Shown here: in pieces, positions 28,001-49,842 of the stretch
Layout: every line of letters begins with the position of its first letter
How positions within the stretch are numbered: the first letter of the stretch is position 1
DNA from: Promethearchaeota archaeon
Lineage (GTDB): Archaea; Asgardarchaeota; Heimdallarchaeia; Hodarchaeales; Hodarchaeaceae
NCBI GenBank assembly: GCA_048938105.1
Contig: JBHLMN010000001.1
Span: forward strand, 32,001 to 96,000
DNA: 64,000 nt
Reading direction: 5' to 3'
The notes under the pieces: model-generated
Told to the model about the DNA's origin: nothing
Databases searched by the model: none
Seen by the model: the letters and a program-made list of their open reading frames with translations, nothing else
Position numbers and translations under genes: made by a program

Positions 28001-31000
28001 AATTCCTGTAAAAGTGGTATTAGTTCTCCCAGCTTTGTCTCTGATAGTAATTGTAATAAAGGTTACCCCATCAGTATAGCTTGGATCAAGGTTGATAATT
28101 GAATAAAACGGACTAGATTGACCTTGACCTGCGTCACTTGCTTGATCACCGTTTAGATTACAGACCACTTGAATGGAGTATACATTAACTTCATTAAAAC
28201 TAATGCTATAATTTGCAAAACCAGTTTCTCCTTGATCATACCAATTTGGAGAGTAATCTGGTAAAATAAAGTTCGTTGTGATTGATTTAGGATTGATTGT
28301 ATCAACATGTACCTCATAGGAGCGATTAAAGAGGCCATAATTTCCTACTTTATCAACAGCTACAGCCCAAAAAGTGTAATCACCATCATCTCCTATATCG
28401 ACAGGATATACGAAGGGATCATCAGATGAATTATATGCATCAGGCGAATTATCATCAACATCGAAAACCACTGTGTTTATTCCAGAGGCACCATCAGCAA
28501 TCGGGGATGGATTGATTGAGAACCCGCTTCCATCTTGATCCCAACCAGCTACTGGAGATCCATCATTACCAGATGCGGTAATACTCGCCATCGTCGGACC
28601 AGTGGTGTCTGCTGTAGTGATAAGAGTTACTCTCTGACTTAATCCACATTGATTAATTATGTCGACTGTAATACTCCCTATAGCCCCTGTATTAGAATGA
28701 TAATTTTCAGAGAGATCAGTTGAAGAGAAGGGAGGAGACGAATCATTAACAGGTGAAGCAATTCCCCAACCCTCGCTGAATACCACACGCCAGGGTCCGC
28801 TATTTCCCCAGTCACCTGAACTATCCATTGATATACTCCATTCTGTATCACCTCCGTTTCCCAGAAAAAGTTCTCCCGAAGTGATATCAGACGAATCAGA
28901 TATCCAAGCGTAAGAAGGAGCCGCCAAAGTCCATATCCCTGTGCCAATTATATCTATATCCATTCCCGTTGGTGTTTCTGTGGAGTAATATACATCAATA
29001 TTGGGGGAAAATGTAGATGTAGCATTGTTACCTACATTGTCTACAACTTGGTACCAGATAGTATTGATGGTTTCGGCTGTAAGTGGGCACGAAACATTTG
29101 ATCCATCAGTAACAGAATCGCCATAAGTTCCTGTCGTATTAGACTTAATCTTTAGGATATAAATACCAGAGCCATCTTCAGTACGGTATACTGTAGCGTT
29201 AAAGGTTGAATCATCATAAAAAGCTTGTATAGTGGTGTTTCCTTTAGTCGGTAGGTATCCATCACCATTATTATCAGTATTGTCATAATAATCAGCAATC
29301 GATATTGCTGAAGGATCATCATTGTCCTCTCGAAACTCAAAAGTCATTATAGCAGTGTTGTTAACGAGATCGGTGGCTGTGTATTTCACCCTAAATATTC
29401 CATTCCCAAAATCTCCTTGGGTGATGTTATAAGTAAATGTCCAACTTGATAACGTCCCACCCATACCTGGATCTTTTCCAAAAGTAGTATTATCTACTAT
29501 AGATAAAAGACCCGCTCCTCCATCGCTAGCTGTGCCTCCTATGACAAAATCAGTACCTACAGGACCCATATTATCTGAATAATAACCATGAGTAGAACTC
29601 CCATCATAATACAGATAAGCAGAAGCCTCAGTTGTCGTACTGGAACTAAAATCAATCGTTGGGTCAGTATTGTCTTCACGAAACTCAAAGGAAGTGGTAA
29701 AGAAATTTCCCACATTATCAGTCGCATTGTAGGTTACCGAAAAGGTGCCGTTCCCAGCATCCCCTTGATCGATCTCATATGTAAATGTCCAGCTGGTTAA
29801 GGTACCACCACGAGGGAGATCATTCCCAAATGTAGTATCGTCCTCTATAGACAAAAGATCCGCTCCTCCATCGCTAGCTGTGCCTCCCACAACGAAATTA
29901 GTATCAATTGAATCCATGTTATCTGAATAATAACCATGAGTAGAACTACCATCATAATACAGATAGGGAGAATCCTCTGTTGTCGTACTGGTACTGATTC
30001 CAATAGTCGGATCAGTATTATCTTCCCGAAACTCAAAAGTTATGATATTGCTATTGTTCACCCTATCAATGGCTTTATAGGTCACTGTGAATGTCCCATT
30101 GTTCTTATCCCCTTGATCAATGGCATAAGTGAACGTCCAACTCGTAAGGGATCCCCCTCGTGGGGGATTATTCCCAAACGCAGTATCATCTTCGACTGCT
30201 AGCAATCCTACGCCTCCATCACTTGCAGTCCCTCCTATGATGAAATCATTATCCACAGAACCCATATTGTCCGAATAATAACCATAAGCAGCACTTCCCT
30301 CATAGTAGAGATAAGGAGACGATTCACTAGTTGCACCTGGATTATGTGTAATGGCAGGAATTGTATTGTCCTCTTTAAACTCAAAGTAAGCAGGTTTAGT
30401 ATTACCAACACGATCAGTGGCTGTGTACATAATTACGAACGTATGCTGGGCAGAGTCACCTGAAGTAATGCTATAAGTAAAGATCCAGTCCGTTAATGAT
30501 CCACTATTACTTGGATCAGTTCCAAATGTGGTATTATCAATTATTGAGAGTAAACCTGCGCCACCATCGCTTGCTGTGCCACCCACCACAAAATCAGTTG
30601 GCGTACTTCCCATATTATTCGAATAGTATCCATAAGCTGCAACGTTATCATAATAAAGGTAATTAGACGACTCACTTGTTGTACTTGGATCGTGATTATT
30701 AGTTGGATCAGTGTTATCTACACGAAATTCGAATAATGTTGTCCCATTATTACCTACATTATCAGTAGCAGTGTAAATGATGTTAAAGGTTCCTTCAGAG
30801 GAATCATCTGAATCGATGGTGTATGAAAAAGTCCAACTACTTAATGAACCACCTCTACTTGGGTTATCACCAAATGTAGTGGTATTATCGGTAACCAATT
30901 GCATACCTGCATCTGCATCATTAGCTGTTCCCCCAACAATAAACGTTACAGTTGTTAATTCCATGTTATCTGAGTAATACCCATGTGCAGAACTCCCATC

Positions 31001-38190: not shown

Positions 38191-39325
38191 CAGAGTTTTT
38201 GTCGCGATCACGGACGATTCCACACACCTCACAGTGATAGATGCGTTCAGAAAGAAGCATCCTCTCTTTTATATGACCACAGACAGCACAGGTTTTGGTT
38301 GTATCCCGTTCATCAATTACTGTTACTCTTTTACCTAACTTTTTCGCTTTATAGGTCAGTAATTCGATAAAGCGACCTAGATGGCCAGTGTTGTGGACAC
38401 CACGATTAATACTCCTCTGATACTTCTTCTTCTCCCTCTTAATCATTCCATTTTTCTTGCCAGTCATTTGTTTAGGTGAGAGATCACCCGCGATAATGGT
38501 ATTGGCTTTGGTATTTTGTAAGAGGTTGATACTTTGCTTATGTTGCCAGTCCCTCGTTTGGTTTCGACATTTCCGTGTGATGGTCGCTAACCGTTGACTG
38601 AACAATCGGTGTCTGCGACTCCCCTGTTTGCAGTGATCTCTTCTCCGCTGCAAAGAGCGAATCTTCGGTTCCCAATATTTGTCGGGACGCTTGACCGTTG
38701 ATTCGAGAAATTTTCCATGTAGATTAATGGCCGTATGTTTAGTCGTACCAAGATCAAACGCTTGGTATAATCCATTGTCAATGAAAGGGGGATCCTCGTG
38801 GTCAAACGTAACTGCTAAGTAGAACTGCTTGTCATAGTGATCTTGAAAGATCTCAATCTGTTTAATGACGTAAGTAGAAAAGTCAAACGGGACTGGAAAG
38901 ATTAATTCTGTCTCACTCGGATGTTTGTGAGAGAATCGTATAGTCTGCTTCGTTATTTTAAAACCTGATTGATTGTAACATAATGTGAAAAAATAATCCT
39001 TGCCTCGGAAGGTTGGTGGCCGAACAGTATGATCTCCGCTCTTTAGTAACCCAAAAAATGATTTATACGCCGCGTCCAGCTTTTTAAGCGTCATTTGGAG
39101 GACTTTGGAGTAGACCTGGTTGTACCTAGGGAACAGCTTCTTTACTTGTGGTAAGGCGTTCTGCTGCTCTCTATAAGTAACACAATGGCTGTAGGTATCA
39201 TAAAGATATTTTCTTTCTGTTAGTGCATGGTTGTACAGTAGTCGACACGTCTCTGATAATTCCCGTAGTACCTCCTCCTGTTGTGGTGTAGGAATGACTG
39301 TGAACTTCCTTGTGAGAGTTACCAT
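38021..39325 (-). CDS. tnpB: RNA-guided endonuclease TnpB
   Basis: N-terminal PTPQQEEVL...CRLLYNHAL; RuvC-I AFDLG; Zn finger CAVC...CEVC; RuvC-III DRDKNSAINI. Confidence 0.93.
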   Translation of the reverse strand: MVTLTRKFTVIPTPQQEEVLRELSETCRLLYNHALTERKYLYDTYSHCVTYREQQNALPQVKKLFPRYNQVYSKVLQMTLKKLDAAYKSFFGLLKSGDHTVRPPTFRGKDYFFTLCYNQSGFKITKQTIRFSHKHPSETELIFPVPFDFSTYVIKQIEIFQDHYDKQFYLAVTFDHEDPPFIDNGLYQAFDLGTTKHTAINLHGKFLESTVKRPDKYWEPKIRSLQRRRDHCKQGSRRHRLFSQRLATITRKCRNQTRDWQHKQSINLLQNTKANTIIAGDLSPKQMTGKKNGMIKREKKKYQRSINRGVHNTGHLGRFIELLTYKAKKLGKRVTVIDERDTTKTCAVCGHIKERMLLSERIYHCEVCGIVRDRDKNSAINIMKRFLSHNALWTGYQYFINRIDNLRYTVNGKTKVSPHLVDKGFGELVGSPLL

Positions 39326-46677: not shown

Positions 46678-48489
46678 GTGAACACGCACATTTCAAGATT
46701 AATTATACATCCCACTGTTCGTCCTCAACAGCAACGTACTTTTAATGCTATTTCACAAAAATGGTCTCAATATAACTCTTTTTTTTGTTCACTCCCGACA
46801 GGATCTGGGAAAACCGATCTTGCTGCATGTATTATATCAGATTATCTTCAAACCAACTCATCAGATAAGATAGATATTTTGGTTCCCTATCGGATGCATC
46901 AAGATTTTTGGTTCAACATCTTACAGAAGTATGCTCGAAAACATGATTTTTCCGTTGCTTTATTAAAGGGAAGATCAGCATATTATTGTCCAATTATACG
47001 TTCAGGAGCAAATATCTCCCCTTGTGCATTTGATCCTTACTATGCTCAGAATTGTCGTTCAAAACGGCAGTGTCCTTTATTAAAAGCTCGACAACAAATC
47101 CGAAGAAGCCAAGTTCGAATTTTAAACTGGTGGGTCTTTAAATACGTAGATTTGGGGGAAGATAAAGCGACTTTCCGAATATTTGATGAAGCACATAATT
47201 TATTCAATCTAGAAAATTTATTGCGTGTGGAAATCAATAAGTCTTTTTTATTTAACATTACCCAAGACCAGGAATTATTGACCAAGTTTGTGAATTGGGA
47301 AAACAAGCTTAAGAAACGCCAATGGATTGAAGTAAAGCAAGATACAGGATTAAATTTCATACGACAACTCCAAGCTGTCTTAACTGAACGTGAAAGAAAC
47401 ATCGCCAAAATGTTGAATGAAAGTTCTCAGATTACCATTAAACTTGATTTGTTAAGAGAACTCCAAAAGATCACGGAGATGGTTGCTGCTCTTTCTGATT
47501 TAATTGCTAATCCCGTATCTTCAGATCTAACATTCTTTTTTCAACGTGACAAGTCAAAAAAACAAGTTCAACTTATTATTCAACCCTTTGAAATCGCATA
47601 CATTTTTACCCAATTATTTAGTGGAAGTAAGAACCTATTTTTGTCAGCAACAATTGGGGATGGTGAATACCTAGCTAAGTTACTTGGATTAAATACCCAA
47701 TATTGTCATTATATACATGAAGACTCCTCATTTGATAAAAAAAATCACCCTTTCATACTGTTGGAGGAAGCAGAGAAGCTTTCGACCGCAACTAGTGAGA
47801 AAAAGGGAAAATCATTTCAAATTATAAAAAATCAATCTCAAACTTTTCTTGATTTATTGAAACAACACCATTTACGTGCTTTGATTCTAACTTCTAGTTT
47901 TGAATTAGCTAATCTGATGTACGGACTTGCGAGGTCAAAACAGCTTGAAGTTATTACACATTCAGCTGGAAAATCAGACAAAGCTATTAAGAGTTTCATA
48001 TCAAATCGTCAAGGAGACGTTCTAATTACTCCTTCAGGGTGGGAAGGGATTTCCTTAGATGATGACCTAGCACGATTATGTATAATTCCAAAATTACCTT
48101 TTCCAATGTTGAGAGATCCAATTATTCAGAAAAAGGCTAAAAAGTATCCTCAATTCCTTGAGAACGACGTTTTAATATCAATACAACAAGCTCACGGTAG
48201 GATTCAACGAAATAGTGCAGATTGGGGAATATCTGTTTGTTTGGATGGAAATTTTCGATGGCTTAAAAGAAAACGAGCGAAGAGTCTAGAACCGTGGTTT
48301 TCAAACAGGATTCATGAAATCTCAATGTTGGAAGCAAAAAAGCTAATTCTTCAGTTGATTTCAGAACAAAGATTGGAAAAAACATCTAAATTATTATCAA
48401 AAACAAAAGCCCCAGCTTTTTCACGAATGAGTAAGAAAGATAGGGAATGGTTAGAATCAAGCGGTTTGGGAGATTTATTGAAAAAATGA
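46678..48489 (+). CDS. DinG/Rad3/XPD-family SF2 helicase with Fe-S cluster cysteines
   Basis: RPQQ (Q motif), LPTGSGKT, LKGRSAYYC plus three more Cys, FDEAHN, LSAT, WEGIS, KLPFP, QAHGRIQR. Confidence 0.88.
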   Translation: MNTHISRLIIHPTVRPQQQRTFNAISQKWSQYNSFFCSLPTGSGKTDLAACIISDYLQTNSSDKIDILVPYRMHQDFWFNILQKYARKHDFSVALLKGRSAYYCPIIRSGANISPCAFDPYYAQNCRSKRQCPLLKARQQIRRSQVRILNWWVFKYVDLGEDKATFRIFDEAHNLFNLENLLRVEINKSFLFNITQDQELLTKFVNWENKLKKRQWIEVKQDTGLNFIRQLQAVLTERERNIAKMLNESSQITIKLDLLRELQKITEMVAALSDLIANPVSSDLTFFFQRDKSKKQVQLIIQPFEIAYIFTQLFSGSKNLFLSATIGDGEYLAKLLGLNTQYCHYIHEDSSFDKKNHPFILLEEAEKLSTATSEKKGKSFQIIKNQSQTFLDLLKQHHLRALILTSSFELANLMYGLARSKQLEVITHSAGKSDKAIKSFISNRQGDVLITPSGWEGISLDDDLARLCIIPKLPFPMLRDPIIQKKAKKYPQFLENDVLISIQQAHGRIQRNSADWGISVCLDGNFRWLKRKRAKSLEPWFSNRIHEISMLEAKKLILQLISEQRLEKTSKLLSKTKAPAFSRMSKKDREWLESSGLGDLLKK

Positions 48490-48656
48490 TCCTCATTTTG
48501 TTATTGAATTTCCTTTGCACAAGTCAATAAAACAAGTCTTATATTAAGAACAGGTTAAGTTAAATTTATAAAATTCCTAGTTAAATGATAACCTCAGATT
48601 TGATAAATCCACCAAATAAAAACATATTTAAGAGTAAATCGAGAAAAGAATCGCTA

Positions 48657-48918
48657 GGATCTATGACTAAGACGGGTCTAGTGTCAACGGGTGCAAAACC
48701 TTGCTCTTCGCATTCATCCCGGTAAGAATGGGAAATGGTCAGGTGGGCAGACAATTTTGGCCTAGACATCCCAACCGAATCACAGGAAGTCATGATTACC
48801 AGTAGAGTTAAAAATAAGCATTCCTGAAAGTTTGGTGAACAAACAGACAGGATAGAGGGCATAGGGTTATGCCCAATATGATGGAGGTTCGTATCGGTAA
48901 CGAGCTAGCTGATGATCC
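48657..48918 (+). ncRNA. Candidate structured ncRNA of unknown family (~260 nt)
   Basis: GC-richer intergenic island with a TATA-like TATTTAAG at 48625-48632, terminal GGATC/GATCC pairing and several clean hairpins. Confidence 0.5.
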
Positions 48919-48990
48919 CATGTGAATACAAATGTCTATCTTTTATAGCATTTGTGATAACCTGTATACATATATTGTGGTGAAAGCGAA

Positions 48991-49842
48991 TTGTATTTTT
49001 CCTTATTCCCTCCAATATCGATTGAGGGGCCAACAACGGAGAAAAACTTAGATATACCTGGACTAGAAGCGCTGAAATCTGTTCAGGTTTCGCCTGATAA
49101 GGTTAGTTGTGTCCTTGATATCGATGGTAGTACCCGAACAATCGATGTGATTAATTTCAATGATCCCAGTCCAGACATAAACCACCGTATTGAAATCGAT
49201 GATAAATTTCCTTTAGAGCTCATGCCACTTGTAACAATAGAGTTATTAGAAGATTTAGCTCAGAAAATTGGAGGATATACCCTAATTTTTACAAACCCTC
49301 CCGAAGCTGGATATTTCGAATTCTACCGTGGAGATTTTTATCCTATTTCCATTCGTGGAACTGATAAACAGCTTTATGCTTCCACTGCTGAACTACGGCC
49401 TCTAAGAAATGATTATTTCGTCGCATTGAACAGTTTGCTTGAAATTGATTTCGAGTCACAGCTCGAAACCTCTCTCGCAACCTTTTCTGAAAATGTCCTT
49501 AAACCAATGTCTACAACAATGGATGAAGTTTTCTCTTTGGATAATGAGTTAGATTCTGATGACTCAATTGTCAATATCATTGGTAGTGATTTTAAGCGAC
49601 TTATTTCCCGAACAGATCAGCTTATCACCATTGTTAGTTATCATATGGATCAAACAGCAGAACGGAATAAAGCCTTCCTCCGTTTAACTCTACCTCTGAT
49701 GTTAAAACAAGCCCTCCTTGAGAACTTTACAGAATATCTCCAATTTGAAGCGGAAAATTCTGAGCTTAGACTAAAAATCATTAAACGAAAGAGCCTAGCC
49801 GTTGAAGACCTTTTGAATCTAATTTTGAAATCTCTTCAATAA
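48991..49842 (+). CDS. Hypothetical protein
   Basis: 283-aa acidic ORF co-oriented with ade; no family recognised. Confidence 0.65.
   Translation: MYFSLFPPISIEGPTTEKNLDIPGLEALKSVQVSPDKVSCVLDIDGSTRTIDVINFNDPSPDINHRIEIDDKFPLELMPLVTIELLEDLAQKIGGYTLIFTNPPEAGYFEFYRGDFYPISIRGTDKQLYASTAELRPLRNDYFVALNSLLEIDFESQLETSLATFSENVLKPMSTTMDEVFSLDNELDSDDSIVNIIGSDFKRLISRTDQLITIVSYHMDQTAERNKAFLRLTLPLMLKQALLENFTEYLQFEAENSELRLKIIKRKSLAVEDLLNLILKSLQ

Follow-up and report, generated by a model that had tools for sequence, protein, structure and literature searches.

A TnpB-less mobile element, probably carrying an omega RNA homologue, with a conserved additional 5′ domain in a Hodarchaeales archaeon

The window analyzed here, i.e., the whole stretch of 64,000 nt, holds two conserved plus-strand genes with a GC-richer island between them. 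Upstream lies an XPD/Rad3-like helicase gene (46678–48489; Pfam Helicase_C_2, ResIII and DEAD), syntenic in congeners, and downstream a conserved gene of 283 aa (48991–49842), present in 20 of the 21 genus genomes, whose product has no Pfam match. The original prediction placed an unassigned structured RNA with its own TATA box at 48620–48925, in between. The island is real, with a GC content of 0.44–0.48 at 48650–48875 against 0.25–0.38 around it, but the feature is larger than proposed: copy-versus-copy similarity delimits a mobile element of 419 nt at 48545–48963, on the plus strand, with sharp similarity borders and unrelated flanks, and the helicase gene lies outside it.

The orthologous site is empty in seven congeners (loci L067–L073), where the helicase and the 283-aa gene are adjacent and the intergenic region, about 120 nt long, reads ...CAAGTCTTATAT|GTG... 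between the same two genes. The occupied site reads TATAT|element|GTATAC against TATAT|GTG in the empty ones. In the window, the left flank ends at 48544 with the TAM-like target motif TATAT (48540–48544, plus strand); the element starts at 48545 as TAAGAAC, directly 3′ of TAT, and closes with GATAACCT at 48963, after which the right flank restarts as GTATACATATAT. Comparison with the empty sites revealed no target-site duplication at the element junctions. Across copies, TAT is found immediately 5′ of the left end in 10 of 11 cases, and TAC in the remaining one. When window positions 48964–48995 are compared with the seven empty loci, approximately 41 nt upstream of the 283-aa gene are missing here and kept there; the missing segment includes ATTATAAGC, likely the TATA box of this gene. 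The TTG start of the 283-aa gene is now located 27 nt after the right end of the element and, for this reason, the gene may be transcribed from the element.

A BLAST search of the stretch against its own genome returned a second full copy (C6:101682–102087, 80% identity) and at least seven partial matches limited to the last 115–150 nt. Between the two full copies, similarity begins near 48545 and halts at 48963, with unrelated sequence beyond both ends. Full copies are also present in three congeners, namely G005 (one), G012 (four to five) and G020 (a divergent subfamily), and in five metagenome contigs, and the flanks are unrelated in every copy. The G020 subfamily (L061, L063 and L065) has a longer conserved left part of at least 200 nt; one hairpin of its 5′ domain is expanded, and a further hairpin precedes a CCAAC motif. 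This subfamily is useful for covariation tests. A gene-less multi-copy unit with sharp ends and an empty orthologous site, inserted 3′ of a short conserved motif without target-site duplication, is what is expected of a PATE-type element.

No conserved open reading frame is found in this region, in line with the original prediction. A minus-strand ORF of 93 aa (48581–48862) is disrupted in 5 of 10 copies, by stops or a frameshift, and lacks a start codon in three (one copy shows both); its variable sites are distributed over codon positions as 38, 28 and 34, without third-position bias, and the product has no Pfam match. A protein-coding reading was rejected on these grounds. The folding energy of 48650–48925 gave z = −1.15 on the plus strand and −0.84 on the minus strand, and 25 of 200 shuffled sequences were as good on the plus strand. 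Energy does not rise above the shuffled level, and so the single sequence does not show structure. The support for structure is covariation, not energy. Over the whole RNA (11 copies), pairing is kept in 97.9% of cells and 10 pairs vary in both partners, compared with 4.1 ± 1.5 in shuffles, but shuffle counts, here and below, are not probabilities since the structures were built on these very alignments and the copies share ancestry. Covariation support was drawn from 11 to 34 such related copies, depending on the part of the molecule. In addition, G-U pairs are frequent on the plus strand only; they would be A-C on the other strand, which indicates that it is the plus strand that is folded and favors RNA over DNA.

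A structured, non-coding RNA-like element on the plus strand is thus supported by covariation, and the homologues that were to be collected for this purpose do exist, as copies of a mobile element. The individual helices proposed from the single sequence had mixed fates. Both TCCTG/CAGGA, with its inner hairpin, and GGGCATA/TATGCCC are in the family consensus and show compensatory changes. The GGT-loop-ACC hairpin is also present in the consensus, but it is invariant and hence without covariation evidence. Pairing of GTCTAG with CTAGAC exists too, as an ordinary nested helix instead of the pseudoknot suggested. For GTTCGT/ACGAGC, most copies use a different register, CTAGC/GCTAG, and AATCA/TGATT is absent from the consensus, its bases pairing elsewhere. 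The pairing of GGATC with GATCC (48914–48918), which had been proposed as a possible helix, is lost in other copies; the conserved closing helix is TCGCTA/TGATGA.

The identity of the 3′ half comes from its similarity to TnpB genes. The last ~150 nt of the element are 71–74% identical to the 3′ ends of approximately seven TnpB genes in the same genome (BLAST), and more are found in congeners. These partial matches fall at the 3′ end of an ORF of 402 aa (e.g., L004:385–1593), present in about seven copies in the genome, which is TnpB according to Pfam OrfB_IS605 and Cas12f1-like_TNB and to NCBIfam guided_TnpB (199 bits). In TnpB-bearing copies, the ORF spans the homologous region (...NILKKAFLNAVDADRIEAVGLHPTRWRLAAVTS*) and the similarity extends to the right end, composed of a hairpin and AATAACCT. 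In the window copy, the tnpB frame is broken by stops while every hairpin is retained with different bases. We aligned this 3′ domain (48813–48963, plus strand) over 34 sequences, of which 13 are TnpB-less and 20 TnpB-linked, the last one being a solo right end. Pairing holds in 96.3% of cells; both partners vary in 14 of 27 pairs (86 cells), where shuffles give 8.5 pairs and 29 cells. As a control, partners slid by one to three columns pair in 30–39% of cells. A covariance model of the scaffold (R2) scores 148 bits at the window copy. It also detects the scaffold in 16 of 20 congeners, where a single genome may contain as many as 20 copies, and gives weaker hits in six further genera of the class. 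No Rfam family was matched by the window, the TnpB-linked or the G020 copies.

TnpB omega RNAs are encoded across the 3′ end of tnpB and the right end of the transposon, and their guide is the DNA beyond the right end (PMC10691335; bioRxiv 10.1101/2023.03.14.532601). The scaffold described above agrees with this arrangement in its homology to the tnpB 3′ end and right end, in its covariation-backed structure, and in that it stops at the transposon boundary, as set by the empty sites, and is followed by locus-specific sequence. Sequence comparison shows it to be homologous, in sequence and in structure, to TnpB omega RNA regions. The omega RNA family of Hodarchaeales and related Heimdallarchaeia to which it belongs is absent from Rfam and appears to be new. 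Canonical omega RNAs overlap or adjoin a tnpB gene and none of the 15 composite copies does so: no TnpB similarity was detected in or beside the element in any of them, and for this reason we file the element as a standalone omega RNA and not as a canonical one. A simpler TnpB-less unit was also observed in another genome (L017; G002:C58, around 29417–29564). It is a deletion derivative of a TnpB element without the 5′ domain, made of the left-end type of L019, L027 and L028, the last 30 tnpB codons and the right end. It shows that TnpB-less omega RNA units also arise by a second route, independently of the first.

The 5′ half of the element is of a different nature. A multi-helix junction at 48656–48799 (plus strand), which we call the 5′ accessory domain, is found in TnpB-less elements only and scores 166.7 bits with its own covariance model (R1). 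Apart from the C6 copy, it has no similarity to TnpB-bearing elements or to the rest of the genome; no Rfam match was obtained at gathering or permissive thresholds, and tblastn detected no TnpB remnant in the 5′ half. With the divergent G020 subfamily included, 15 copies were compared: pairing holds in 95.8% of cells, and both partners vary in 9 of the 39 pairs, compared with 3.5 in shuffles. It is also the best conserved part of the element (91% mean column identity): two orthologous loci differ by one mismatch in 148 nt of the 5′ domain, against ~5% in the flanks. Matches of R1 are restricted to 4 of the 21 genus genomes, with none in 61 other genomes of the class, and in every match the 5′ domain is fused to the omega scaffold. 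Within the window's own genome, neither R1 nor R2 gave a match near window positions 38200–38770.

The RNAalifold consensus of 11 copies encloses this domain in the closing helix, whose 5′ strand, TCGCTA (48651–48656, plus strand), pairs with the 3′ strand, TGATGA (48910–48915, plus strand). Pairing in this helix reaches 98.5% across the 11 copies; the changes, in three pairs, touch one partner each and never break the pair. TnpB-linked copies can form the same closing helix (98% paired) with ATCATTAA inside the tnpB codons, at the I-I-N codons that directly precede the RuvC-III aspartate. From this strand to the scaffold there are ~42 nt of coding sequence in TnpB-linked copies and ~155 nt in TnpB-less ones, meaning that a 144-nt domain replaces a tnpB coding stretch. 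Both this conserved 144-nt insertion and the internal archaeal promoter-like box appear to be new. The 5′ domain would most likely stabilize the guide RNA, or help it to fold, outside the tnpB mRNA.

That promoter-like box is AAACATATTTAAG (48620–48632, plus strand), an archaeal BRE/TATA-like box that is conserved among copies and is a putative promoter. Its TTTAAGA is invariant in ten intact subfamily-1 copies, and at an equal distance the G020 subfamily carries GGTTTAAAAAG. The TATA box of the original prediction, TATTTAAG at 48625–48632, 25 nt before GGATC (48657–48661), holds up well against this conservation. A start would be predicted at about 48654–48657, which is on or immediately downstream of the TCGCTA strand of the closing helix, so one of the two assignments, helix or start site, is in error. 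A second TATA-like box is located at 48566–48574. Scans for bacterial-type promoters and terminators were uninformative, the host being archaeal.

The extremities of the element resemble each other. The left end (48545–48600, plus strand) has a subterminal A/T hairpin at 48562–48576, followed at 48587–48594 by the same octamer that ends the right end. The right end (48927–48963, plus strand) is defined on the alignment as a subterminal hairpin, ACAAATG...CATTTGT, in which four pairs are changed on both sides, plus the terminal octamer at 48956–48963. Hairpin and octamer together match the TnpB-linked copies L018, L027 and L028, and the architecture of a hairpin followed by [AG]ATAACCT is common to TnpB-bearing copies. 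The left end has its small A/T hairpin and the octamer, but its homology to the left ends of TnpB-bearing copies is not clear-cut on the alignments. Alignments likewise gave no clear backing for reading the 5′ half as a left end of the resident TnpB type. Elements of the IS608 type insert 3′ of a short motif without duplication and carry subterminal hairpins at both ends. The insertion geometry and the hairpin–octamer arrangement at both ends of our element, as read from the sequence, fit the IS200/IS605 type.

Several other identities were considered. The RNase P RNA of this genome is located at C52:489555–489917 (137 bits) and its SRP RNA at C52:297893–298199 (70 bits, below the 96.5-bit gathering cut-off); neither model matched in the window. 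With both RNAs located elsewhere in the genome, the stretch is neither of them, in agreement with the original prediction. The Rfam search proposed along with it returned nothing at gathering thresholds (whole window) and only noise at permissive ones (48450–49050). An archaeal C/D box sRNA would have conserved boxes C (RUGAUGA) and D (CUGA) placed so as to form a k-turn; UGAUGA is conserved here, yet this motif is preceded by U or C and is paired in the closing helix, the only CUGA sits in the UCCUG/CAGGA helix and is replaced by CCCAAA in the G020 subfamily, and the sole model match (SNORD48, 14 bits, minus strand) is noise. A hammerhead ribozyme and an IStron (group I) were likewise weighed from motifs and ruled out on the alignments; no group I intron match was obtained.

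We also searched for the enzyme that could mobilize such an element. PATE-type elements would be expected to have a Y1 TnpA available in trans, but Y1 TnpA (PF01797) was not found in this genome (G000), which is 99% complete; it occurs in 2 of the 21 genus genomes, as one copy with a stop and one partial copy. The genome does contain an IS607-like pair (G000:C52:247701–249309), in which a serine recombinase gene (Pfam Resolvase, 73 bits) immediately precedes the gene of a TnpB with 43% identity to the main family. A serine recombinase of the IS607 type was set aside as the mobilizer, as the TAT-adjacent insertion without duplication does not point there. Another ORF, of 244 aa (L079:1463–2197; G000:C6:189962–190696), lies directly upstream of a frameshifted TnpB copy, and remnants of its 3′ end are observed upstream of other TnpB copies (L008 and L040). 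It has no Pfam or NCBIfam match and may be an unrecognized accessory or transposase gene of the TnpB IS family.

One TnpB-bearing copy allowed a comparison of insertion sites. The copy on contig C11 is located directly after ...GGATTAT, as defined by its right junction against the empty sites of five congeners; its left flank has no homology to congeners, and the right junction is the only one alignable. The sequences thus show a TAT target motif common to the element and to a TnpB-bearing copy. Two ORFs follow the right end of a TnpB element on C11 (L004:1669–3111; G000:C11), one of 252 aa and one open at its 3′ end, which are putative ESCRT-type genes, judging by eye from the translations. 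The 252-aa ORF has homologues in 21 of the 21 genus genomes, and the insertion is ~20 nt before the first ORF.

We consider it probable, with good confidence, that the element is a TnpB-less mobile unit carrying an omega RNA homologue. It would be a non-autonomous element of the IS200/IS605–IS1341 type, PATE- or MITE-like, which lost tnpB, kept the omega RNA and probably expresses it. A function of this RNA as a guide acting in trans is a separate claim, which we favor by a small amount over its absence. Transcription would begin at the element's own TATA-like box, or at the second one (48566–48574), and proceed through the right end, so that the transcript would include ~16–20 nt of flanking DNA as its guide. 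We place the predicted guide segment in the read-through flanking DNA at 48964–48983 (plus strand), its length being borrowed from known omega RNAs. No two copies share the sequence that follows the right end. Within the genome, the guide 20-mer matches only its own locus, where it is preceded by AACCT and not by TAT, and no secondary target in the genome was found for either of the two guides.

The RNA would then be loaded in trans by TnpB from the ~7 genomic copies. Since the scaffold is only 71–74% identical to those of the resident TnpB copies, compatibility with the resident TnpB is assumed. The complex would cut the emptied donor site, where TAT is followed by a match to the guide, and recombination would restore the element. 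Such cut-and-restore selfish retention has been proposed for TnpB elements and omega-RNA-encoding PATEs, and both standalone omega RNAs acting in trans and omega-RNA-encoding PATEs have been described (PMC10691335; bioRxiv 10.1101/2023.03.14.532601).

Alternatively, the element could be an inert relic, i.e., a decaying deletion derivative of a TnpB element whose apparent structure is no more than a legacy of the parent omega RNA. Copy number is low (1–5 per genome), no transposase was found in the genome, some copies are decayed (L050, with deletions of 5 nt and 23 nt, and L057, with a degenerate 3′ half), and a plain left-end plus right-end derivative, L017, does exist. Inheritance alone sits poorly with compensatory changes among the TnpB-less copies themselves, with two divergent subfamilies that share the composite layout and a promoter-like box at the same distance, and with a 5′ domain that is better conserved than any other part and differs far less between orthologous loci than their flanks do. 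We regard the relic reading as improbable. The same conservation, stronger in the 5′ domain than in the scaffold and without a known family match, might instead indicate that the function resides in this domain, as a novel RNA (a ribozyme, a ligand- or protein-binding module, or a regulator) that rides on or has exapted a transposon end; or else the element could now serve the host as promoter and 5′ leader of the downstream gene, whose native upstream region was deleted and whose start is 27 nt from the right end. Neither version is easily reconciled with a 5′ domain never seen apart from the omega scaffold and present in only 4 of 21 genus genomes, nor with copies that adjoin unrelated genes. 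Helices explain most of the conserved bases, and no ribozyme or riboswitch signature was found. This possibility seems quite improbable to us.

The hairpins might also act in single-stranded DNA, as recognition sites for an IS200/IS605 transposase, and not as RNA. IS200/IS605 ends do have subterminal DNA hairpins, and here a hairpin followed by the octamer is found at both ends, but ~80 pairs in 12 helices over more than 300 nt go far beyond what end recognition needs, many of the pairs are G-U or alternate between G-U and Watson–Crick (A-C on the other strand, and weak in DNA), and the homologous regions of TnpB elements are expressed as omega RNA (PMC10691335; bioRxiv 10.1101/2023.03.14.532601). 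We see very little chance for this reading. The least probable of all is the one with which the original prediction ended, a unique cellular gene encoding a structured RNA of a new class, suggested by the lack of an Rfam match and by a GC island with a TATA-like box. What we found is a multi-copy mobile element with unrelated flanks, missing from 17 of the 21 genus genomes, and its 3′ half is homologous to the omega RNA and right-end region of TnpB elements, a known kind of RNA. The empty orthologous sites of the seven congeners and this TnpB homology refute a stand-alone cellular class, leaving it a negligible probability.

These results remove a false lead, in that no missing universal RNA or new cellular RNA class is present here in an Asgard genome. 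They document a TnpB omega RNA family in Hodarchaeales and related Heimdallarchaeia that Rfam does not hold, and they identify a derived, gene-less form of it, which has a promoter-like box of its own plus an additional RNA domain that is conserved. Precise empty-site comparisons yield TAT as a TAM candidate for this Hodarchaeales TnpB family, on the evidence of aligned junctions. TnpB is the ancestor of Cas12 and of the eukaryotic Fanzors, and a standalone guide with an added module therefore bears on how guide RNAs become separate genes. One may speculate that TnpB-less omega RNA elements gained, in the 144-nt 5′ domain, a new functional RNA module, an idea that we find unlikely on balance. 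If true, the module might bring in a host or TnpB-related factor, process the RNA as a ribozyme, or free the guide from the tnpB mRNA, and the elements would be Asgard-specific parasites or partners of TnpB of a "guide-only" kind, self-expressed and with properties unseen in bacterial PATEs.

Compared with canonical TnpB omega RNAs (reRNA, e.g., of ISDra2), the element has the same position at the right end, a multi-hairpin scaffold running up to the boundary and a 3′ guide; unlike them, it does not overlap a tnpB ORF, the frame being broken by stops, and it is ~115 nt longer owing to the 5′ domain. Bacterial omega RNA families have no sequence similarity to it, and no Rfam model matched. Group I introns end in G, and a domain of 144 nt is, we presume, too small for a group I core. 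IStrons, which combine a group I intron with an IS605/IS607 TnpB, also join a 5′ structured RNA domain to a 3′ omega RNA (bioRxiv 10.1101/2023.11.20.567912); our element differs from them in that it has no group I match, is intergenic and ends in T.

The closest systems are standalone omega RNAs and PATEs (Altae-Tran et al. 2021, via PMC10691335; Meers et al. 2023, bioRxiv 10.1101/2023.03.14.532601). They share with our element the lack of a protein gene with ends and scaffold kept, a genome that also houses TnpB-bearing elements, the right-flank DNA as guide, and insertion beside a short target motif without duplication. Our element is set apart by a 144-nt structured insertion in the scaffold and an internal archaeal TATA-like box, by a Hodarchaeales (Asgard) host in whose genome no Y1 transposase was detected, and by a left end that is not clearly that of the resident TnpB elements. 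As standalone omega RNAs and PATE-like elements were already known, the kind itself is not new; what appears new is its 5′ domain, its internal TATA-like box and its Asgard host.
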